IMG/VR virus record: IMGVR_UViG_3300028536_000001
Span: 40,874 to 104,873 of that record
Source: a virus
Reading direction: 5' to 3' (one strand)
DNA: 64,000 nucleotides
A model generated the notes under the pieces. The model worked only from the letters and a program-made list of their open reading frames with translations, searched no databases and was not told where the DNA came from. Of this stretch, positions 2-58,415 are shown in pieces (within the stretch, counting starts at the first letter, position 1; each line of letters opens with the position of its first letter). Both the position numbers and the translations under genes were made by a program.

Positions 2-1591
2 GCTGCTAGAAATCTTAGGGATAGGGTCGAAGACCGAATCTTCACTCAGCCTCCTGAACGAATAGCTGGATTCATGACTTTCCACGCGTGGGCTTTGGCC
101 TTCCTGGAAAAAGAGAAGCACAACATCGATTCTGTCCATTTAACGGATAATTTTCTGGCTACAGAGGGCCAGCTAAACAAAATCGGCTATGAATTAGCAA
201 ATAAGTTCAATTTGAACTGGAGGTCGCTGAGATCGTACATCAGTCTTCAGAAGCGGAACAGAACCACACCGCCAGATGCGCTGGTTGCCGCCGAGAAGCG
301 CGGGGAAGGTCAAAGCGAGGCGCTGGCCTACAAACAGTACGACAAACGCCTCACAGAGGCAGGAATCCTTGATTTTGACTCCCTGATGTTGGAAGCAGTC
401 AAGGCCTTAGAGGATAACGAGGAGCTACGGGAAAAATATTCTTATTTGCACGTAATGGAAGACGAGGCCCAGGATGGGGATCGAATTCAGTATAAATTAT
501 TGCAGCTACTGACACAAAAACACGGTAACTTGTTGATTGTAGGGGATTTGAATCAGTCTTGTTACGCTTGGCGTGGGGCTGCACCTGAACTGTTTCGAGA
601 CGTTCATGAAATTTTTCCTACGATTCAGAAACTTTTTCTAGGTACGAATTACAGGTCAACTCGCTCTATAGTGAACTTTATAAAGAAGATTGCCCCAAAC
701 CGTGACGAACTTCTTGACCGCTTTAACACTCCAAATGAAGAGGGTACCGAACCTGAAATAAGGGTATACTCCACGCCGGAGCGTGAAGCCGAAGAAATTG
801 CTAAGATTGTCGCTGAAGATCCTGAACATTCTGCGGTACTAGCCAGAACTAACCTAGCACTTCGGCCAATCGAGGAAGCGTTGATAGAAAACGGTACCAA
901 ATACCACCTCCTCGGTAAATCCGGATTTTGGACTTGCCAAGAAGTGAAAAACATAGTACCGTGGTTACAGTGCTGTGTGAATTTGACAGATTCGGCAGTC
1001 ATAGCGGCAATTAGGACTCCTTTTTATCCGTCTAAGTACTTGAAACGTAAACAGTTAGCAGAAGAAACAGGATCAGCAAAAATATCAGCCTATCAATATC
1101 TTCTGACGCGACCAGAGAAGAATATACAGGATTTTGTATCTTTCTTGCGATCCTTGGTGAAATATCGATACCTTCCAGCCAAAGACGCCGTGGCTGCTAT
1201 CCTAAAGGATCTCAAAGCTGCGGAGTATTACAAAGAAGAGGAATCGGTCGAAAACGACAACAACCCTGTCGAAAACCTTAAGGAATTAGTCAAAGCGGCA
1301 GGAAAGCACGAGACCCTGCGGGATTTTTTGAACTTCATCCGGAAGGTTCAGGCCGCGTCAAAGTCTAGGAAAGGCTGTGCGGTCGCGACGGTACACCAAG
1401 CCAAGGGACGCGAGTGGTCCACGGTGGCTGTAGTGCAAATGACTGAGGGGATTTTTCCGCATAAGCGATCCACAGATTTGCAAGAGGAACGAAATTTATT
1501 TTTTGTCGCTTGCTCTAGACCCGAAAAAAGGCTTATACTGAGTTACAGCGGCCAAAAATCAAAGTTCTTGGAGGAACTAAATGAAAGTTGA
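2..1591 (+). CDS. UvrD/PcrA-family SF1 DNA helicase (5'-truncated by window edge)
   Basis: Motifs TFHAW, VMEDEAQD, VGDLNQSCYAWRGA, NYRST, TVHQAKGREW and EERNLFFVACSRP. The frame is open from base 2 (AARNLRDRVEDRIF...), so the true start lies upstream of the window. Confidence 0.93.
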   Translation, partial: AARNLRDRVEDRIFTQPPERIAGFMTFHAWALAFLEKEKHNIDSVHLTDNFLATEGQLNKIGYELANKFNLNWRSLRSYISLQKRNRTTPPDALVAAEKRGEGQSEALAYKQYDKRLTEAGILDFDSLMLEAVKALEDNEELREKYSYLHVMEDEAQDGDRIQYKLLQLLTQKHGNLLIVGDLNQSCYAWRGAAPELFRDVHEIFPTIQKLFLGTNYRSTRSIVNFIKKIAPNRDELLDRFNTPNEEGTEPEIRVYSTPEREAEEIAKIVAEDPEHSAVLARTNLALRPIEEALIENGTKYHLLGKSGFWTCQEVKNIVPWLQCCVNLTDSAVIAAIRTPFYPSKYLKRKQLAEETGSAKISAYQYLLTRPEKNIQDFVSFLRSLVKYRYLPAKDAVAAILKDLKAAEYYKEEESVENDNNPVENLKELVKAAGKHETLRDFLNFIRKVQAASKSRKGCAVATVHQAKGREWSTVAVVQMTEGIFPHKRSTDLQEERNLFFVACSRPEKRLILSYSGQKSKFLEELNES

Positions 1592-1772
1592 CGAGAGATT
1601 TCCATGTTGGAGTTATGACATCGGATCAGAATTCTTTGAAGTTTGGAGATGCTATACGTGCGGAGCAATAGTTGTAGACAGGCAAAAACACAACGAGTGG
1701 CACAATATAACAGAAGCCAAGGAGAACATATGCGATGCTCAGAGTGCGGACGGCCAGCAATCTTCAAAGTAA
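1581..1772 (+). CDS. small hypothetical protein (CxxC)
   Basis: Overlaps the helicase stop in operon fashion; WRCYTCG. Confidence 0.55.
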   Translation: MKVDERFPCWSYDIGSEFFEVWRCYTCGAIVVDRQKHNEWHNITEAKENICDAQSADGQQSSK

Positions 1773-1966
1773 AGAATTCAAAGAAGCACCTACACTGCGA
1801 TAAACGCCATGATCTGTGTTTCTTTCACATTCGCAGGTATTTCAACAAATTGCAGCAGGAAAAACTGAGGGAGGAAGTATGCTCGGCTATCTCATTGCCA
1901 GTATCGTCGTAGCAATCTGGGCTTTCTTCTTCATCGCTTTGATTCGGATGTTTACAAAAGGATAAC

Positions 1967-2245
1967 ATGCCTCATCCTCTGGTTGTTCATTGTAAAAAGT
2001 CAGAATACGACGAATACATAGGTCGTCCTTCAAAATGGGGCAATCCTTTTGTGGTTGGTGCAGATGGTACTCGCGACGAAGTTATTGAAAAGTACGAACA
2101 ATGGATTCAAACGCAGCCAGATCTGCTAGCGGACGTATATAAATTGAAAGGAAAAGTTTTAGGTTGCTGGTGTGCTCCGAAAAGATGTCACGGAGAGATA
2201 CTAGTCAAGCTAGCTAACGAGAAATATGCTTTATTTGATTTTTAG
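1967..2245 (+). CDS. DUF4326-like phage protein
   Basis: VVHCKK...YIGRPSKWGNPF...LKGKVLGCWCAPKRCHGEIL is the typical family signature. Confidence 0.85.
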   Translation: MPHPLVVHCKKSEYDEYIGRPSKWGNPFVVGADGTRDEVIEKYEQWIQTQPDLLADVYKLKGKVLGCWCAPKRCHGEILVKLANEKYALFDF

Positions 2246-2441
2246 TTCGGAATCGGATTTTACGGATACAGCCAAGTACTTTGTATCTGTGTGGCCGTCG
2301 TTGAACGATGCGATTGAAGCCATCGATCACTTGGCTGAAGAACCGTGGGGTCAATACCGATTCTGGTGGGTCACGAGCACGATGGTCGGAGACCCGTACA
2401 ATTTTACAACCAGTTTGGTGAGATCACCGGAAGGAAGATAA
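2226..2441 (+). CDS. hypothetical protein
   Basis: Tightly packed ORF in the + strand operon. Confidence 0.55.
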   Translation: MLYLIFSSESDFTDTAKYFVSVWPSLNDAIEAIDHLAEEPWGQYRFWWVTSTMVGDPYNFTTSLVRSPEGR

Positions 2442-2443
2442 AC

Positions 2444-2662
2444 ATGAGTCAAAGCGATCCACAATTTTACGAAGGCGCAAATTGGATGTTAAATGCTGTG
2501 CGGTCGAGCATAGAAAACTATCCTGACGCGGGAGGGGATATAGAGGTTATGGCCCGCATAGACGCGGTATACAACAGTGCCATCGATGATGTGCTCGATA
2601 TCTTGACCGACTCCTTCACTCTATCTGCCGTAGTTCCAAGAATCAGGGAGTTGAAGAAATGA
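2444..2662 (+). CDS. hypothetical protein (tandem paralog of next gene)
   Basis: ATG at 2444 after AGGAAG; shares IxNYPD...AYNxAI...IxELKK with the next ORF. Confidence 0.6.
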   Translation: MSQSDPQFYEGANWMLNAVRSSIENYPDAGGDIEVMARIDAVYNSAIDDVLDILTDSFTLSAVVPRIRELKK

Positions 2663-2970
2663 ACACAGTAGCTGTTCGAAAAGCAATCAAAGAGTTAAAC
2701 CATGTTCTTGAAGACTTGAACGAGTCCGACCTAGATGCGCTCAAACTGTTTAAGAAGGGCGAGGAAGCTACTCTGGAATCCATCCAAAATCAGATAGCTA
2801 ATTATCCTGATCCCCGCTGCGGTCTTCTTTGCTTCATCGAGAAATGGGTAATCGAGCGGGAGAGACTAGCGTATAACGAAGCGATTCGTGCAGTGCTCAA
2901 GGCCTTCGTTCGAGATACCGAACCAACCGTCTCTGAACTTTACACTAAAATTACGGAGTTGAGAAAATGA
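2659..2970 (+). CDS. hypothetical protein
   Basis: ATGA overlap with previous gene; IANYPD...AYNEAI...ITELRK. Confidence 0.65.
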   Translation: MNTVAVRKAIKELNHVLEDLNESDLDALKLFKKGEEATLESIQNQIANYPDPRCGLLCFIEKWVIERERLAYNEAIRAVLKAFVRDTEPTVSELYTKITELRK

Positions 2971-3131
2971 AAATTTGGAGATGGATTATGTCTCGTTTAA
3001 CTACTCCAACTTGTACAGTTATATTTCCTGGACTAGTAATTGGAAAAGGATACAGGTCAAAATGCGAAGGATATTGCGCGTATCATAATAGGTTTAAACC
3101 ATGAAAGTGCTGCTCGGAATGAGAAAATAAC

Positions 3132-4319
3132 GTGGCGATACTATATACCAGCCCCACTCGGGGATATCCAGTAACGGATCATAGTTACTCCGCAGGATCG
3201 CTCTACGATGACTGCCCTAAGAAGTACGACTATGACCGCCGTCAGGGATGGAAGGAGAAGGAGAAACGCGCCTCATCTGCCTTCGGTACCGCAGTTGAAT
3301 CGGCCATCCAGTATCACCACAACTCTGGAATGGTACTATCCGACACCATCGATGAATGGAAACGGCTGTGGGTGCTTCAGCAGGATAATAAAGAACTGGT
3401 ATACTCAGATAAAGATGGCGACTGGGAATCTATGTATAGGCAGGGCGAGCAGATGGTTCGGCTGTACATCGCTGTGTTGCCTACGTTACCTATCCAAAAT
3501 CCACAGTTTCAGTTGAACTACAAGAAGGAGTACTACCCAGATACTGAATACGCGGGATTAAAAGATACAGCCTTCCTAGATATGGAAGTGACCGCTCCTT
3601 GGAATCACCCCTTGCTACCTCCTTTAGAAGAATGTCCGGAAAATGGACAACGCAAAATCTTCATTGACATCAAAACTTCGGCAGCCTTGTATCCGGTAGA
3701 TCCCCGCATGATAAAACTGGACCCGCAGCTACGGAGATATGCGTGGACCTCCGGAATCGAGACTGCCTGCTTCCTAGTTTTGGTAAAACGAGGAATGGAG
3801 TTTGAAAAGGGCGATACGGTTACTGTCCTTGAAGCGTACAGCGAGCAACATCCGGTAGGTACTGAGTTGGTAGTTTTAGATGCCTCAAAAGAAGTCTTGA
3901 CTTTGCTGACACCAAAGATCTATGATCAGTACGACGCGGAGGCTAAAGGGCTAAAAGGAAACGTACTCAAGGAAAAGAAACAGGAATTTGCGGATCGATT
4001 TGGAATTCAGGCTGCCAAGCATGAGGTTACAAAGCAGCGACTACAATTCTTGGCCGCGATAATCTCTGAAGAAGAGCGGCACGAAGCAGGTGAACTGGCT
4101 GGAATGCAGGCTCGGAATATCTGCGATTCCAACATTCAGAATTTCTTTCCCAAGCGACCTGGAATCAAGTTTCCGAATAATCACTGCACCTTCTGTTCGC
4201 ATTTAGGATTGTGCATCGGTGATGAAAAAATGATAAAGAATAAACTAATTCAAATCGGAAACTCACGCCCATCTCGGAGTGAAGAGTCGTCTGATTCGGA
4301 TTGGCTTTTTGACTTATAA
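3132..4319 (+). CDS. PD-(D/E)XK (RecB-like) nuclease superfamily protein
   Basis: N-terminal SYSAGSLYDDCP, GTAVESAI, FIDIKTSA, QLRRYAW, C-terminal HCTFCSHLGLC (Fe-S/Zn ligands). Confidence 0.8.
   Translation: MAILYTSPTRGYPVTDHSYSAGSLYDDCPKKYDYDRRQGWKEKEKRASSAFGTAVESAIQYHHNSGMVLSDTIDEWKRLWVLQQDNKELVYSDKDGDWESMYRQGEQMVRLYIAVLPTLPIQNPQFQLNYKKEYYPDTEYAGLKDTAFLDMEVTAPWNHPLLPPLEECPENGQRKIFIDIKTSAALYPVDPRMIKLDPQLRRYAWTSGIETACFLVLVKRGMEFEKGDTVTVLEAYSEQHPVGTELVVLDASKEVLTLLTPKIYDQYDAEAKGLKGNVLKEKKQEFADRFGIQAAKHEVTKQRLQFLAAIISEEERHEAGELAGMQARNICDSNIQNFFPKRPGIKFPNNHCTFCSHLGLCIGDEKMIKNKLIQIGNSRPSRSEESSDSDWLFDL
3633..3649 (+). repeat. 17-bp dispersed motif TGTCCRGAAAAYGGACA (exact)
   Basis: TGTCCGGAAAATGGACA inside the PD-(D/E)XK gene. 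Confidence 0.85.
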
Positions 4320-4391
4320 AGAAAACTTTTCTGTCAAAATCGGGTTTATATACAATACGAAGTAAAAACAGATATACTGTATCCGAAAAAT

Positions 4392-5498
4392 ATGATTACC
4401 TATACTTATAAAATTCGTCCAACCAAAGCACAAGAAGTTAAACTTTTGGAAACACTGGACTTAACTCGTAAACTTTATAATGACGGTCTTCGAGAATTGA
4501 TTGATCATTACGAGAAAATAGGAAAATATCTTCATAGATACGATCACGATAAACTACATAATTCAAAAAGACATCCCACTCTTCAAGGATTTGTAGTAGA
4601 TGAAACATTAAATCGACTGCATAAATCTTTTGCAGATTTTTTTAGAGGCATAAGAGAAAAACGTAAAGTTGGGTTTCCTCGTTTTAAATCGCAAGATCGT
4701 TGGCATAGTTTTTCTTCTTCTTGTTCGGGCGGATTGACTTTGCGTGGAACTTTATTTTATGCGGGAAAAAAAATGGGAGGAAAAATTCGAGTTAATGTTA
4801 CTCGGCCTCTCCAAGGTAATCAAAAGATATCACGTATTCTCAAGAAACCATCAGGCTGGTATCTTCAAATCGTAACTGATTATGAAAAACCTAAACTAGA
4901 ACCAAATACTCAATCAATTGGCTTGGATTTTGGGATTAAAAATCTTGTTGCTGATAGCGAAGGAAACTTCGTAGAAAATCCACAGTTTCTAAAGCAGTCG
5001 CTAAAGAAACTTAGAATTGCACAGCGCTCCAAAGACCGTCGAAAAATAGGGTCTAATCGTCGCAAAAAAGCAACACAAGTTGTATCCAACGTTTACGAGA
5101 TAGTTCACAATCAGCGCCTCGACTATTATCATAAAGTAACTAGACGATATGTCAACGACTGTGGTCTGATCGTAATAGAAGATTTAAAACCATCGAATAT
5201 GATTAAAAACCACAACTTAGCTCGTTCAATTATGGATAGCAGTTGGGGAATGCTAAGAAATCTACTTGAAGTCAAAGCGGCAGAAGCTGGTCGTCAAGTA
5301 ATCGCAGTACCACCACATTACACATCTCAAAAATGTTCTAAGTGCGGAGAAATAGTTCAGAAATCATTAAGCGTTCGCACTCATTCTTGTCCTTGTGGTT
5401 ACATCGATGATCGAGATGTGAACGCAGCAAAGAATATCTTAGGGGCCGGGTTGGCCCTTCAGGCGTTAACGTATGGCACTAGCCAACGCGTTGCCTGA
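4392..5498 (+). CDS. tnpB: TnpB RNA-guided endonuclease (IS200/IS605 family), solo, no tnpA
   Basis: YTYKIRPT N-terminus, GFPRFKS, RuvC residues GLDFG / VIEDL / DRDVNAAKNI all intact, zinc finger TSQKCSKCG...HSCPCG. Confidence 0.95.
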   Translation: MITYTYKIRPTKAQEVKLLETLDLTRKLYNDGLRELIDHYEKIGKYLHRYDHDKLHNSKRHPTLQGFVVDETLNRLHKSFADFFRGIREKRKVGFPRFKSQDRWHSFSSSCSGGLTLRGTLFYAGKKMGGKIRVNVTRPLQGNQKISRILKKPSGWYLQIVTDYEKPKLEPNTQSIGLDFGIKNLVADSEGNFVENPQFLKQSLKKLRIAQRSKDRRKIGSNRRKKATQVVSNVYEIVHNQRLDYYHKVTRRYVNDCGLIVIEDLKPSNMIKNHNLARSIMDSSWGMLRNLLEVKAAEAGRQVIAVPPHYTSQKCSKCGEIVQKSLSVRTHSCPCGYIDDRDVNAAKNILGAGLALQALTYGTSQRVA

Positions 5499-53680: not shown

Positions 53681-53910
53681 AGGCTCTCCTTTAGATACAG
53701 CGGAAACATTGAAGCTAAAATCTTAAAATCGCGGTCATTCTGGGCGGCTACCTTGTTGTACCATCCGTTCGCGAGAGCGTCACTGTCATGCGGGTATTCC
53801 TTGGATGCGATAGTTTTCATCTGGCCGCGTAGAGAAAGGTTGTATAACATAAGATCATTGTAGCACAGGTTGAGCGGAATTGCAAATCTTAGATTCCATC
53901 CAATCAGCAA
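53677..53910 (-). CDS. hypothetical protein (true start probably internal)
   Basis: ORF track; overlaps the HNH 3' end. Confidence 0.4.
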   Translation of the reverse strand: MLIGWNLRFAIPLNLCYNDLMLYNLSLRGQMKTIASKEYPHDSDALANGWYNKVAAQNDRDFKILASMFPLYLKESL

Positions 53911-54406
53911 TTTTTCTGTGTTCCTCGGCTGTACCGTTGTTCTTTATGCGGTTAGCTCGATAGGACATAACTACAACATTATCCTTGAAATACCCCAATT
54001 CAGGTCGAATTCTATCTATACTAGGTGAACCGTCTCTATTGCTATCAACACTTCTGGGCTGAAGTTTTATCCCCAAAATTGGACAATATTCAGGGATTAT
54101 AATATCTTCTTCTTTAAGATCAAAAGGAACATTAAACCTTTTCGCTCTCTGTTTAGCAGCATAAACTAAATGCCGTTCTAAATACTTGATGTAGCGGGCT
54201 TGTTGCTGAGAGATCATTTTCTCTCGATTGTTCTGGTACCGTTCAGCCCACCGCTGTTTTGTACGATCCATATTCTTCGCCCGATTAGCCCTGACCTTTT
54301 TAACATCACAAGGTTTACAAAGAGAACGAAGACCGTCTTTCTGGCCCTTATCTTTACTAAAGCACTCAAGCAGCTTTTCTTCACGACATATTCTACAGAT
54401 TTTCAT
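53855..54406 (-). CDS. HNH endonuclease
   Basis: ATG at 54406 with GAGG SD; CPILG...SPSIDRI.P..GY..DNV.VMS..AN..KN. Confidence 0.88.
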   Translation of the reverse strand: MKICRICREEKLLECFSKDKGQKDGLRSLCKPCDVKKVRANRAKNMDRTKQRWAERYQNNREKMISQQQARYIKYLERHLVYAAKQRAKRFNVPFDLKEEDIIIPEYCPILGIKLQPRSVDSNRDGSPSIDRIRPELGYFKDNVVVMSYRANRIKNNGTAEEHRKIADWMESKICNSAQPVLQ

Positions 54407-54493
54407 ATTTTCCTCAAGTTGCAGTAGCGGACGCACTTGAGGGAACGCCCGCCGCCGCATTTAATTGCACCTGATGATCAATCAGATAATTCT

Positions 54494-54564: not shown

Positions 54565-57500
54565 CTAGCTGCTGGAAGTCTCTGATTGCAATCGTCTTAT
54601 AGTCATTGTTGAACCGGGCATCGTTGTTACTCACCTTGCGGCGGGATAGATCATTTCTGTCTATCTCTGTATGTCGCCATACAGTCCGGACTATCGCACA
54701 ACCGCTTGACTGCGGTTTCTTCTCGTTTAGTCTCTTCAGCCGAAATTATCTTGCTGTTTGTTGTCTCCCAAAGGAGAGGTTCAATTTGATTAGAGAAGAT
54801 TTATACTGCGCCAAGGTTAACGCAGTGACGTAGTGAACTTAACATTATAAGCGCACCAACCCGTTTGTTTTCAGCAACTTAGCATCTCTGCTAGTTGGCG
54901 CTCACAATCGCTCGTGAGATGAGACTGTATCTTAGCTTTCGCTTCTATCATGTCAGTCGTTACGGTGCCTTGCGGTTACCTCGGGATTGTCCACTAGGGA
55001 GTTTCCCCGATATAGATAGATTTAAAATCGGCAGTTTGACGTACCGATCTGTCTTGCTGGATCAGAAACACTACCCTGTTGAGGAGCTTCCTGAATACAT
55101 TGGATTATTGCGTCTTTGACGACTCTACATGTTTCCAAGTAGTTTGGACTATATCTTCATCCCAGTAGGATGGCATCGTGTAGTCTCTACGGCTCCCAGT
55201 TAGGTTGCCTCGGGGTTACCCTCGCGGGCCTTCACCGATATAGATGTATTTTCAGTTAGCATTGCTGCTAAAAGTGCCTAGTTTCCAGAGCAATTTGTAG
55301 TTTCTTTCCAGATATTGTTTAAGTACTTTTAAGTACATTCTCATAGTTTCTTATGAGGTCGGACTATGTCTTCACTTTCGTGTCTAGCGTATAGTCTCTA
55401 AGGATTCCCTTGCGGGTCTTTCCTCGGCGTTACCTTTACAGGCGTTCACCGATATAGCTAAATTAAGTGGCAAAAGTCTTTACCACTTTCCGGATTTCTT
55501 CCAAGAAAAACGGCGAACAACGCGTCATCTCCGTAGAGATAAGTATTATCAGGTTTGTTTTAGGCCGCCAAGCTCACGCGTGGGGCTCTCACTTCATCTC
55601 TGAAGTGCTCAGGCTCTATCTTCACTACATGGCTTCCTTTAGAAGTAGTCGTAGTGTCTTGCGTATTAGTCGTTACAGAACGCCCTTTTTTGTTTAACTC
55701 CATCATTTTAAGTCTATAGGGTGCTCTTTTCGCAGGATCGTTCACGTTGAAAAGAGATTGATAATCCAACATCAATTGTAACTGCTCACACTTAATTTTC
55801 ATGTAAGGTTTCACGGCTTGTAAGAAATCGTGAATATCTTGTTTCCGACTGAGAGACCAGAGATAGCAATCTTTGTTCTTTTTGTCTGGAACGATGCGCA
55901 GTTGAAGATTTCCACCAAATTTGGCATACAACCAATCGGTTAGAATTCTGTTGGTATTACCTACTATGACTTTACAACCGTACGTATAGCAAACTACACC
56001 TTTACGGTTTTTGTTCTTGACGCGGTATATGCTTATACATCCTTCGCAATCCATTGCTGAGGCTGCGTAAGCTGCGTCGTGCGGAGATAAAATATACAAG
56101 GGCTTTCCTCGGTATTGTGAGTTATAATATAATACATTATAACACATATCCACCGATTTAGCAAGATTTCGTACCAAATTTTTTAGTACGTGTTTCCACC
56201 AATAGTAACAGTAGGAGCAGTGGAGGTCTGCTTGAATGTCGCACCACCAAAGGTGATAACGTCGTCGTTTGAAAGCGGTGCAAGCAGCTTCTCGCGAGTG
56301 TCGTCGCCACGTTTGAGGATGTCGGTCAAGCCGTTCCAGGACTGATCGTTCAACACGTCTCTCACTACGTTAGGATGAATAATCCCTCCGTACTGACCGT
56401 TAGGATACAACGGACGTGCGTTTACTGATACTAGGGACTGAACAGCCGAGCGAATGTTGTTCGCGGTCAAGTAAGTGCCGTTTGCAAGCTGGATGTTTAC
56501 GCTTGAATCGACGCCCGTTGCGGTGTCAGAGGTGTACTGAACAAGAGTGTTCAGGGTTAGGGCCAAACGATAGTTTAGCTCTGTTGCCAGGTTGTTTAGA
56601 AGACCTGGTTCGTCAATTGCAACATCACAATTATGTTTTGGATCTTCAGTATCACTACTGAAATCAACTTACATTCACATGTAAGATCGGACTCTATCTT
56701 CACCGTAAAGGTGTCCAGCGTATTAGCCTCTGGGGTTCCCTTTCGGGTTACCTGCTTCTAATCTTGCTGCCAAGAGTTTGAAGCATTTGGCTGGATTTAA
56801 TGGCACCAGATTTAGTTTAGTGCCAAGTCAGATGCGTTGATATAATCGCTGTACTGACCCACGGTCGCGTTAATTTTGGTTGACGATTCGGAAATAGGTG
56901 ATCCTACTGTACCTTCCAGTTATGTTAACTAATCATCGCTGAATAGCTCGGACTATATCACCATCCCGAAGGATGTGTATCGTGTAGTCTCTAAGGATTC
57001 CCTTGCGGGTCTTTCCTCGGGATTGTCCTCTAGGGAGTTTCCCCGATATAGATACATTTTCGATTAGCATTACTGCTAAAAGCGCCAAAAGTTTAGCGGC
57101 CTGATTTGTGTTAGCAGGCAGAAGAGCGTAGGAGTAGAACTGGATGTTATTTCCAGAGTGCATTGGAAGCGGCCACTGTTTAGCCATTCCGAGGACATAT
57201 TCTTATGGGTCACGTTTGACCGCGCTGCATATTACTATGCAGATGAGACTATATCATTTGATATCGGCGTGTAGTCGTTACGGATTCCCTTGCGGGTCTT
57301 TCCTCGGGATTGTCCTCTAGGGAGTTTCCCCGATATAGCCAATTTTATTCACCACCTCAATGATGGTGTGTTCGCTTTCAAGTTAGGGCTGTGTGTTTAG
57401 GCTGCGTGAACAGCGCACTCGTAATCACTTACGAGAACAGACTCTATCTTCAAATTGCGTAGTATACTAGACAAATTAGAGAAAATGCTTCTCTTTGACT

Positions 57501-58415
57501 CGTATATTAGACATTTTGTCTTACGTTATGGTCGTTTCGGTGCAAACTCTTAATGACTGTAGCATGTCGTTCACTTCTTTCTTTTTCTCCACCAAATAGG
57601 GGATGATAGAAAGAAGAAACCGTTCGGAATTGGTTTCCATATCTTCGCTGTGGGGTGTGATTTTATCTGTTATTCCCGTTGCGTCAATTATCCCAGCTTG
57701 ATAGGCTGCGATCTCTCGTCTGGTCTTCATAGTCTGTGAAGATTCTGTAAACTCGTCCATTTTCTGGATAACGTACTTTGCGTCATCCTTTTTCTCGAAC
57801 AAAAAGGGGTAGAGTTCCTTTAATAAAGAGGGAAGTGCTTTCTCACCGGTCAGTTTCCAGTAGTAGATCTTCTTCTCGTCGTCAGGTACTCGGATGAATA
57901 CGCCGCCAAAATGAAGTACTAGGAACTTGCAGACTTTACGTGTTGTATTTCCTGTATGAACGGAATACTGAATTTTGTGAATTACACCGTCATCTTGACC
58001 GATGAAACCACCTGTGTCCAACATTCCCGATAAATAGGCTAACTTAGACGTTCGTGTCATTTATGAGTTTGTTACCTCCGTCTTGTCTCTTCCATTGTAT
58101 ACCAAAGAGAGATTAACGGATATGGTAAGATTTTAAAGCAACCATTGTTAAAAAATTGCTTTTCTTTCGTCGTTTTGTTTAAGCTATCAACGTTCCCGTT
58201 GATGCGTGCTCGCGATCACTCGCGAGATCAGACTGTATCTTAGACTGTTGTCTCTGTACGTTTCAGTCGTTAAGGAGCCAATTCGGTTTCCTTGGGATTG
58301 TCCACTAGGGAGTTTCCCCAATTTAGTACAGTTACCTACCAGAAAGTTAGTAGGTTGCAAGCAGGTTGGGTAGTTGACCCGAAGATACCTGTATGCTAGA
58401 TGGGGTATAAGCCAT
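54565..58415 (-). CDS. major capsid protein (N4-gp56-like), 11 exons, 329 aa after splicing
   Basis: Exons (5'->3' on - strand): 58415-58349, 58170-58155, 57388-57363, 57195-57095, 56916-56819, 56627-56185, 55549-55482, 55308-55289, 55097-55043, 54861-54820, 54618-54565 = 990 nt, in frame with no internal stop. Lies directly after the scaffold gene; contains GQY.DY, IIHP...D and DP..Q.G.W motifs. Confidence 0.9.
54619..54819 (-). ncRNA. group I intron 10 (201 nt)
   Basis: P1 ACUGCGU/GCGCAGU, P10 AACC/GGUU, P3 UCUUCUC/GAGAAGA, P7 GAGACUA/UAGUCC, terminal G. Confidence 0.88.
54862..55042 (-). ncRNA. group I intron 9 (181 nt)
   Basis: P1 AUCGGU/GCCGAU, P3 UCUAUC/GAUAGA, P7 ACGACUG/CAGUCU, terminal G. 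Confidence 0.9.
55098..55288 (-). ncRNA. group I intron 8 (191 nt)
   Basis: P1 UGCU/GGCA, P3 CAUC/GAUG, R GUAGAGACUACAC, S GAAGAUAUAGUCC, terminal G. Confidence 0.9.
55309..55481 (-). ncRNA. group I intron 7 (173 nt)
   Basis: P1 AGUGGU/GCCACU, P10 CUUUU/GAAAG, P3 UUAGC/GCUAG, P7 GAGACUA/UAGUCC, terminal G. Confidence 0.9.
55560..56099 (-). CDS. intron-encoded single-motif LAGLIDADG homing endonuclease
   Basis: AAYAASAMDCEGCISI motif; probable TTG start at 56099 after GAGG SD; the 3' end overlaps intron P7/P8/P9. Confidence 0.85.
   Translation of the reverse strand: MYILSPHDAAYAASAMDCEGCISIYRVKNKNRKGVVCYTYGCKVIVGNTNRILTDWLYAKFGGNLQLRIVPDKKNKDCYLWSLSRKQDIHDFLQAVKPYMKIKCEQLQLMLDYQSLFNVNDPAKRAPYRLKMMELNKKGRSVTTNTQDTTTTSKGSHVVKIEPEHFRDEVRAPRVSLAA
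56136..56164 (-). promoter_or_regulatory. sigma70-type promoter inside intron 6
   Basis: TTGCTA-17-TATAAT upstream of the LAGLIDADG start. Confidence 0.65.
56628..56818 (-). ncRNA. group I intron 5 (191 nt)
   Basis: P1 GGCACU/GGUGCC, P3 UCCAGC/GCUGGA, R GAGGCUAAUAC, S AAGAUAGAGUCC, terminal G. Confidence 0.88.
56917..57094 (-). ncRNA. group I intron 4 (178 nt)
   Basis: P1 CGCU/GGCG, P10 ACUUUU/GAAGGU, P3 GUAUC/GAUAC, P7 GAGACUA/UAGUCC, P8 CAUCC-UUCG-GGAUG, terminal G. Confidence 0.9.
57196..57362 (-). ncRNA. group I intron 3 (167 nt)
   Basis: P1 CACCAU/GUGGUG, P3 UUGGC/GCCGA, P7 ACGACUA/UAGUCU, terminal G. Confidence 0.9.
57389..58154 (-). ncRNA. group I intron 2 (766 nt, ORF-containing)
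   Basis: P1 AAAGCAAU/GUUGCUUU, P3 UCUUAC/GUAAGA, S element GAAGAUAGAGUCU (P7 imperfect), terminal G. Confidence 0.8.
57521..58060 (-). CDS. intron-encoded LAGLIDADG-like protein (likely degenerate nuclease)
   Basis: LAYLSGMLDTGG and IAAYQAGIIDATG helices; lies between P6 and P7 of intron 2. Confidence 0.75.
   Translation of the reverse strand: MTRTSKLAYLSGMLDTGGFIGQDDGVIHKIQYSVHTGNTTRKVCKFLVLHFGGVFIRVPDDEKKIYYWKLTGEKALPSLLKELYPFLFEKKDDAKYVIQKMDEFTESSQTMKTRREIAAYQAGIIDATGITDKITPHSEDMETNSERFLLSIIPYLVEKKKEVNDMLQSLRVCTETTIT
58171..58348 (-). ncRNA. group I intron 1 (178 nt)
   Basis: P1 ACCUACU/GGUAGGU (U.G), P10 CUUUC/GAAAG, P3 UGUAC/GUACA, P7 ACGACUG/CAGUCU, terminal G. Confidence 0.9.

Follow-up and report, generated by a model that had tools for sequence, protein, structure and literature searches.

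To our knowledge, the smallest self-splicing group I intron is that of the Azoarcus sp. BH72 pre-tRNA-Ile, a member of subgroup IC3. It is 205 nucleotides (nt) long (PMC3895272) and makes only two long-range contacts (PMC4201826). Phages have traditionally been associated with subgroup IA2 (PMC11878797), and intron-disrupted genes have also been reported in jumbo phages, with no remark on intron size (10.1101/2020.12.14.422802). Here, we examine a 64,000-nt stretch of viral DNA (hereafter, the window) corresponding to bases 40874-104873 of IMG/VR record IMGVR_UViG_3300028536_000001, a genome of 106,512 base pairs (bp) that has direct terminal repeats and is judged complete. Within the window, the gene for an N4-gp56 family major capsid protein is interrupted by ten group I introns (I1 to I10, numbered from its 5' end), eight of which lack an open reading frame (ORF) and are 167-201 nt long. 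We hold with good confidence that all eight are genuine ORF-less group I introns and that they belong to a single diverged paralogous family residing in an essential phage gene. They represent a new sequence family that is very compact and, save for the P8 helix of the smallest member, I3, structurally complete.

Exon-intron layout of the capsid gene

To delimit the introns, three homologues that have no introns (P0001, P0003, and P0014) were used as tblastn queries, which resolve the gene into 11 colinear exon pieces. Each junction was then placed to satisfy three conditions: a U as the last base of the upstream exon, a G as the last base of the intron, and agreement of the joined codon with the homologue. 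Because the boundaries are fixed by comparison with intronless homologues and not by folding alone, they are exact to the nucleotide. Excision of all ten introns yields a protein of 329 amino acids (aa), which aligns over residues 1-329 with P0001 (329 aa, intronless) at 83.9% identity without a single gap. An earlier note on this DNA, made from the sequence without database searches, had listed eight ORF-less introns between 54619 and 58348 and had placed them at or below the size of the Azoarcus intron; its eight lengths and its span coincide exactly with the mapped exons (Table 1), and every one of the eight falls below 205 nt.

The resulting intron density is ten in a single coding sequence of 990 nt, and the shortest exons are only 16 (exon 2), 20 (exon 8), and 26 nt (exon 3) long. 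Exon 2 is almost fully occupied by sequences that pair with the flanking introns, with nucleotides 3-7 serving as the P10 guide of I1 and nucleotides 9-16 as the P1 guide of I2. When the largest capsid exon is used as a query, approximately 115 full-length proteins of 281-337 aa are recovered, many of which are named N4-gp56 family major capsid protein (JGI). At 44.7%, the capsid protein also matches the major head protein of a soil phage of acidobacteria, Tunturiibacter phage Tunturi_3, and the source phage is of a soil type.

Group I identity and core fold

All ten introns are detected on the minus strand by the Rfam group I intron model RF00028, for which the curated gathering score is 50 bits. 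This score is reached by five of the eight small introns (I3, I4, I5, I7, and I8), while I1, I9, and I10 lie below the cut-off with E values of 1e-7 to 0.06. The model does not delimit the introns reliably: its best match in the window (56668-57104, minus strand, 63.5 bits) arises from two introns wrongly joined, I4 supplying its 5' half and I5 its 3' half, with exon 5 put inside a supposed P9 insertion, and its matches to the small introns run only as far as P9, leaving the final 12-48 nt of each intron uncovered. The splice sites themselves follow the group I pattern in all ten introns. The 5' splice site comes after a U that pairs with a G in P1 (a U(-1):G wobble with the internal guide sequence, within a P1 of 4-8 bp), a terminal G marks the 3' splice site, and a P10 candidate of 3-6 bp can be drawn.

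With helices assigned by hand-set coordinates in each small intron, the folds comprise 37-49 bp with 0-2 mismatches and place 44-49% of the bases in pairs (n = 8). P3, P4, P5, P6/P6a, P7, and P9 are found in all eight and P8 in seven, such that the P3-P8 and P4-P6 domains, the P3/P7 pseudoknot, and compensatory changes are all observed, with I3 and its missing P8 as the exception. The earlier note had named failure to fold into a P3-P7/P4-P6 core as one outcome that would speak against its reading; this core folds in each of the eight and is supported by covariation.

Outside the core, the introns are strongly reduced. P2 is absent from I1, I3, I5, I7, I9, and I10, where P1 and P3 are joined by only 2-6 A-rich bases, and it is present as a 5-bp helix with a GNRA loop in I4 and I8 alone. 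J7/3 is 3-4 nt in all eight, and P7.1/P7.2 are consequently absent throughout. P5 consists of 3-5 bp and P6 of 2-4 bp followed by a P6a of 2-3 bp, frequently closed by a GCAA or GAAA loop (I3, I4, and I7 share the hairpin CCC-GCAA-GGG), while P8 has 3-6 bp except in I3, where it has none. P9 is 6-7 bp long with a GNRA loop (L9) in every copy. A further hairpin 3' of P9, P9.1, occurs in all but I4, with a GNRA loop in I1, I5, I9, and I10 and without one in I3, I7, and I8. Each small intron therefore has P2, P9.1, or both, which look like two alternative routes to a second stabilising hairpin. With respect to the earlier note, the placement of P3' directly after P7 and the short P5 and P6 hairpins are borne out, whereas its account of P2 was correct for I1, I3, I7, and I9 but overlooked the absence of this helix from I5 and I10, making six such introns rather than four.

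The small size of the introns is due to parts outside the core being missing or trimmed, and would be accounted for by the lack of P2 in six of the eight, of P7.1/P7.2, of any P5abc-type extension, and of an endonuclease gene, together with the short P5, P6, and P8. GNRA tetraloops would probably hold such a fold together, with L9, whose classic partner is P5, available in all eight and either L2 (I4 and I8) or the P9.1 hairpin as the candidate for a second contact. The set assembled for L9-P5 tetraloop/receptor covariation comprises 81 family members and is heterogeneous. In seven of the eight, the presence of the usual set of helices together with GNRA loops fits self-folding, and the minimum free energy (MFE) structure computed with ViennaRNA for I7 alone (z = -3.2) recovers P3-P6, P9, and P9.1. 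Splicing would most likely take the usual two-step course of group I introns. In the first step, an external guanosine would cleave the pre-mRNA 3' of the U that pairs with G in P1; in the second, the released 5' exon, still bound to the internal guide sequence, would attack 3' of the terminal G while P10 positions the 3' exon.

Covariation among intron copies

Covariation was assessed in a plain MAFFT alignment of the eight intron cores, against 500 column shuffles and a slid control in which the 3' partners are moved by 1-3 columns. In the alignment, the proportion of paired cells is 87%, compared to 71% in the shuffles, and none of the 500 shuffles attains the observed values. Changes on both sides are seen in 17 of 31 pairs, and pairing drops to 32-42% in the slid controls. 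As evidence of covariation, the slid control and the count of pair types weigh more than the shuffles. P3, P4, P8, and P9 covary freely among copies whose cores are 43-76% identical. In the hand folds, the fifth pair of P7 also changes, from A-U to G-C in I1 and I9; the count of zero double changes for P7 in the MAFFT alignment is the result of these two rows being misaligned there.

The most similar segments belong to I3 and I4, which share an identical run of 57 nt (57338-57282 and 57051-56995, minus strand) that starts at the final base of P3 and covers most of P4-P6. Outside this run, the two introns differ in their guide sequences, P3, P8, and P9. This pattern points to recent copying, or gene conversion, among the gene's own introns.

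An intron without P2 and P8

I3 stands out in lacking both P2 and P8. Only 5 nt (AUCAA) separate P3' from the conserved J8/7 (AUGAUA), and there is no room for P8 because even a 3-bp helix would need to consume J8/7. The Rfam alignment of I3 likewise deletes P8, with 2 nt in its place. The P8-less form recurs in a related contig, L015, and a search of viral contigs for further P8-less introns returned 14 contigs with alignments too poor to call P3 and P8. Tentatively, and with more doubt than belief, we suggest that I3 functions without P2 and P8, either by self-splicing on an incomplete P3-P8 domain or through completion in cis or in trans by a neighbouring paralogous intron. If self-splicing is the true course, I3 would be among the most reduced natural group I ribozymes.

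Relatives of the intron family

For relatives, we searched with R1, a covariance model built from the eight cores, and with tblastn. Across the 106.5-kb genome, R1 finds the family nowhere outside the capsid gene. The same family is present in the capsid genes of other viral contigs, namely L011/L012 (4 matches), L013, L014, and L016, as well as L027, L030, L040, L041, and L065 (at least 8 matches). The compact P4-P6 pattern matches 49 viral contigs, among them L024 (GC content 31-42%), in which the interval 1173-5070 contains 10 R1 matches in 4 kb. The compact family is widespread in related viral contigs. A blastn search of I4 against 50,697 phage records yields only partial matches (29-37% coverage) in phiKZ-like and other phages, and no close relative among these sequenced phages.

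Contig L016 derives from a strain that is 98% identical, and its copy of I1, also 98% identical, differs by few changes confined to loops or a helix end. The occupied intron sites vary among close relatives, as expected for mobile introns. The interval 2034-5426 of L065 is a capsid gene of this family in which an intron of about 191 nt occupies the I1 site; here, as in L024, 9-10 matches to the compact intron model fall within about 4 kb. The ORF-less capsid introns of the relatives are approximately 190-235 nt long, which places the present phage at the small end of the family. Gene callers fragment this essential capsid gene, and Rfam fuses neighbouring introns and misplaces their 3' ends; as multi-intron capsid genes recur in related contigs, the intron load of uncultivated phages is probably underestimated.

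Two of the related contigs have unusual structures. L015 (IMGVR_UViG_3300015241_000256), in its interval 1627-4186, encodes capsid residues 1-55 without introns. Then come a 3' part resembling that of I2, exon 3, and I3 in full; exon 4 is lacking, and I4 begins only midway through P5. The contig was probably assembled chimerically across the repeated cores, recombination being the other candidate, and its chimeric appearance led us to drop it as an orthologue for covariation. In L011, a 51-nt insert (3084-3134, identical in L012) interrupts the capsid gene between the codons for ...SMT and KQK.... The insert follows a U, ends in G, and contains in-frame stops. Its sequence GGUCAUUG pairs with the 5' exon CAAUGACU with a U:G at the junction, its GUGGUU pairs with AACCAC of the 3' exon, and a catalytic core is absent. 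It looks like a core-less mini-intron that would have to borrow a ribozyme.

Neighbouring genes

The capsid gene lies between an SU10-type portal gene on one side and a free-standing endonuclease gene, directly downstream, on the other. The ORFs of the two longer introns, I2 and I6, belong to the same family (phrog_5046, with E values of 2e-10 and 3e-17, respectively) and show LAGLIDADG-like motifs and weak similarity to I-CreI; a Pfam search of these ORFs gave no match. Three nuclease genes are thus found within 4.6 kb, two of them LAGLIDADG-like intron ORFs and one free-standing. The free-standing endonuclease may be a partner of the ORF-less introns in collaborative homing. No tRNA genes were found in the window.

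Table 1. Introns, exons, and flanking nuclease gene of the capsid locus. Coordinates are those of the window; helix lengths are in base pairs, with loop sequences in parentheses.
Feature	Coordinates	Length	Strand	Description	RF00028 match	Helices
Major capsid protein gene (N4-gp56 family)	58415-54565		minus	11 exons and 10 group I introns		
I1	58348-58171	178 nt	minus	ORF-less	40.3 bits, E 1.2e-7	P1 7, P2 absent, P3 6, P4 6, P5 3, P6 2 + P6a 3, P7 5, P8 4, P9 7 (GUGA), P9.1 7 (GGAA)
I2	58154-57389	766 nt	minus	Group I, 179-aa ORF (58060-57521)	29.1 bits, on 3' part	
I3	57362-57196	167 nt	minus	ORF-less, smallest	50.7 bits	P1 6, P2 absent, P3 6, P4 6, P5 3, P6 2 + P6a 3 (GCAA), P7 5, P8 absent, P9 7 (GUAA), P9.1 5
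I4	57094-56917	178 nt	minus	ORF-less	56.1 bits, scanned alone	P1 4+2, P2 5 (GUAA), P3 6, P4 6, P5 3, P6 2 + P6a 3 (GCAA), P7 5, P8 5 (UUCG), P9 7 with 1 mismatch (GCGA), P9.1 absent
I5	56818-56628	191 nt	minus	ORF-less	50.4 bits, scanned alone	P1 7, P2 absent, P3 6, P4 6 (UGCUUC/GAAGCA, fully covaried), P5 5, P6 2 + P6a 3 (GAAA), P7 4-5, P8 4, P9 7 (GUGA), P9.1 6 (GUGA)
I6	56184-55550	635 nt	minus	Group I, ORF of about 190-200 aa	22.1 bits, on 3' part	
I7	55481-55309	173 nt	minus	ORF-less	50.1 bits	P1 7+3, P2 absent, P3 6, P4 6, P5 4 (GUAA), P6 2 + P6a 3 (GCAA), P7 5, P8 3 (GAAA), P9 6 (GAAA), P9.1 5
I8	55288-55098	191 nt	minus	ORF-less	58.4 bits	P1 4, P2 5 (GCAA), P3 4, P4 6 (1 mismatch), P5 4 (GCGA), P6 3 + P6a 3, P7 5, P8 5, P9 7 with 1 mismatch (GAAA), P9.1 4
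I9	55042-54862	181 nt	minus	ORF-less	32.0 bits, E 3.6e-5	P1 8, P2 absent, P3 6, P4 6, P5 3, P6 2 + P6a 2 (GCAA), P7 5 (GACUG/CAGUC), P8 3 (GAAA), P9 7 (GCGA), P9.1 4+4 bulged (GAGA)
I10	54819-54619	201 nt	minus	ORF-less, most diverged copy	21.3 bits, E 0.055	P1 7, P2 absent, P3 7, P4 3 (weak), P5 5, P6 4, P7 5, P8 6, P9 7 (GCGA), P9.1 6+2 (GAAA), P9.2 4 (GCAA)
Exons 1-6	58415-58349, 58170-58155, 57388-57363, 57195-57095, 56916-56819, 56627-56185		minus	tblastn, intronless homologues		
Exons 7-11	55549-55482, 55308-55289, 55097-55043, 54861-54820, 54618-54565		minus	tblastn, intronless homologues		
Free-standing endonuclease VII / HNH-type gene	53858-54424		minus	phrog_3322 (E 4e-34), phrog_1035 (E 5e-31)		

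Alternative explanations

Several observations count against reading all eight as genuine group I introns that splice themselves. P1 is merely 4 bp in I4 and I8, P4 is merely 3 bp in I10, whose P4-P6 domain is skipped by the Rfam alignment, and I3 combines the lack of space for P8 with a weak MFE z-score of -1.7. The shuffle test overstates independence, as the covariation is drawn from paralogues within a single gene, and the self-splicing of the eight is predicted from their sequence alone. I10 scores 65.8 bits against R1, a value that is not independent since I10 is among the model's own training sequences. In a further reading, the introns would be non-functional parts of a decayed pseudogene, or else products of mis-assembly among repeated intron copies, as the chimera-like structure of the short contig L015 across these repeats might suggest. 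We find this scarcely credible: the ten excisions together, and no fewer, yield a capsid protein of full length without gaps, the genome in the record is complete and has terminal repeats, and R1 locates the family in one capsid gene with no sign of a second intact copy, for which no protein search was run.

Two other alternatives accept the eight as real group I introns but have them act with help, and the earlier note had raised both protein and trans-RNA help. It is possible, though in our judgment rather unlikely, that some or all depend on protein; the candidate helpers are the LAGLIDADG-type proteins encoded in I2 and I6, in a maturase role, as well as the translating ribosome and an RNA chaperone of the host. 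A periphery so reduced, with P2 gone in six copies, tiny P5 and P8, and no P8 at all in I3, might not hold the core, and two LAGLIDADG-like ORFs lie inside the same gene. Group I splicing is aided by LAGLIDADG proteins such as I-AniI and the bI3 maturase, which lends this idea some weight. So does the observation that most large ribozymes use protein cofactors (PMC2813881). On the other hand, positions of RNA-only stabilisation carry GNRA loops, namely L9 in all eight and either L2 or P9.1/P9.2 in six (not I3 or I7); known maturases serve their own intron and not eight others; and related contigs have small introns of the family without an obvious adjacent ORF-bearing intron. Less probable again is that at least I3 is assisted by RNA, with a neighbouring paralogous intron supplying the missing part of P3-P8 or the whole active site. 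The absence of P8 from I3, the position of I4 only 101 nt downstream with its 57-nt run identical to I3, and the core-less insert of L011, which must be removed by something else, would all agree with such an arrangement. However, I3 retains an intact P3, P4-P6, P7, J8/7, and P9 and scores above the Rfam gathering score, we find no specific pairing between I3 and I4, and there is no established case of a neighbour complementing in trans a group I intron that naturally splices in cis. A need for protein or trans-RNA help is nonetheless most plausible for I3, because it has no room for P8. Taken as a whole, the exact exon boundaries, the restored reading frame, and the covarying helices favour eight genuine ORF-less group I introns of one paralogous family.

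Comparison with known group I introns

When compared to the Azoarcus intron, the eight introns are similarly compact and ORF-less with few peripheral elements, and they likewise have a GNRA loop at L9, the Azoarcus fold being stabilised by GNRA tetraloop contacts. They are 4-38 nt shorter, and the differences extend to location and architecture. The Azoarcus intron lies in a tRNA anticodon loop, whereas these lie in a protein-coding phage gene, and its P2 loop docks on P8, whereas six of the eight have no P2 and one has no P8. The R and S core elements of the eight are of the GACUA...AAGAUAUAGUC type, from which those of the Azoarcus intron differ. Self-splicing is proven for Azoarcus, while splicing of the eight is predicted from their nucleotide sequences. 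We considered assignment to subgroup IC3 and rejected it, given the capsid gene as host, the lack of tRNAs in the window, and the absence of P2 in six of the eight.

The classic phage introns, including those of T4 td, nrdB, and sunY, Twort orf142, and SPO1 (IA2), resemble the present ones in that they reside in essential phage genes, can occur several per gene (Twort orf142 has three), and are often linked to homing endonucleases. Classic IA phage introns have P7.1/P7.2 and are approximately 250-1000 nt long, in contrast to the 167-201 nt and the missing P7.1/P7.2 seen here, and the intron density of the present gene is far above that of classic phage genes. As IA2 requires P7.1/P7.2 between P7 and P3', where all eight have only 3-4 nt, this subgroup was rejected as well.

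Introns of comparable or smaller size are found in jumbo phages (Staphylococcus phages MarsHill, Madawaska, and Machias; Bacillus phage AR9), which have many introns per gene and small back-to-back matches. In MarsHill, whole-model RF00028 matches span 151-196 nt, these being match spans and not mapped intron boundaries, and two of them (252187-252353 and 252372-252554) are 18 nt apart, a gap that caps the first intron at about 185 nt. In AR9, the RF00028 matches include spans of 160 and 194 nt and form clusters of four and six within stretches of approximately 1.3-3 kb. The jumbo-phage introns differ from those described here in coming from phages of a different host phylum, in lying in polymerase genes and not a capsid gene, and in sharing no detectable sequence family. 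Our literature searches, which were weak, returned no natural group I intron named as shorter than Azoarcus, nor one tested biochemically. A claim to the smallest natural group I intron was nevertheless rejected in view of the MarsHill matches. Of the earlier note's proposal that the eight are minimal natural ribozymes, the compactness stands, with a full P3-P9 core in seven of eight, and the suggestion that they are uniquely minimal does not, given the spans seen in MarsHill and AR9. The eight introns are a good new example of very small phage group I introns, not a record.

Folding studies call for small self-splicing introns as scaffolds, as does the production of circular RNA with permuted introns. 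Here, eight diverse compact group I cores in a single transcript, one of them without P8, make up a natural test set for how little periphery such a core needs. In size and architecture, they resemble engineered sunY miniribozymes and Tetrahymena deletion variants, which are about 180 nt long with peripheral helices removed. Those constructs were made by deletion in the laboratory and are less active or need more Mg2+, whereas the eight introns described here are natural and are carried in an essential gene.

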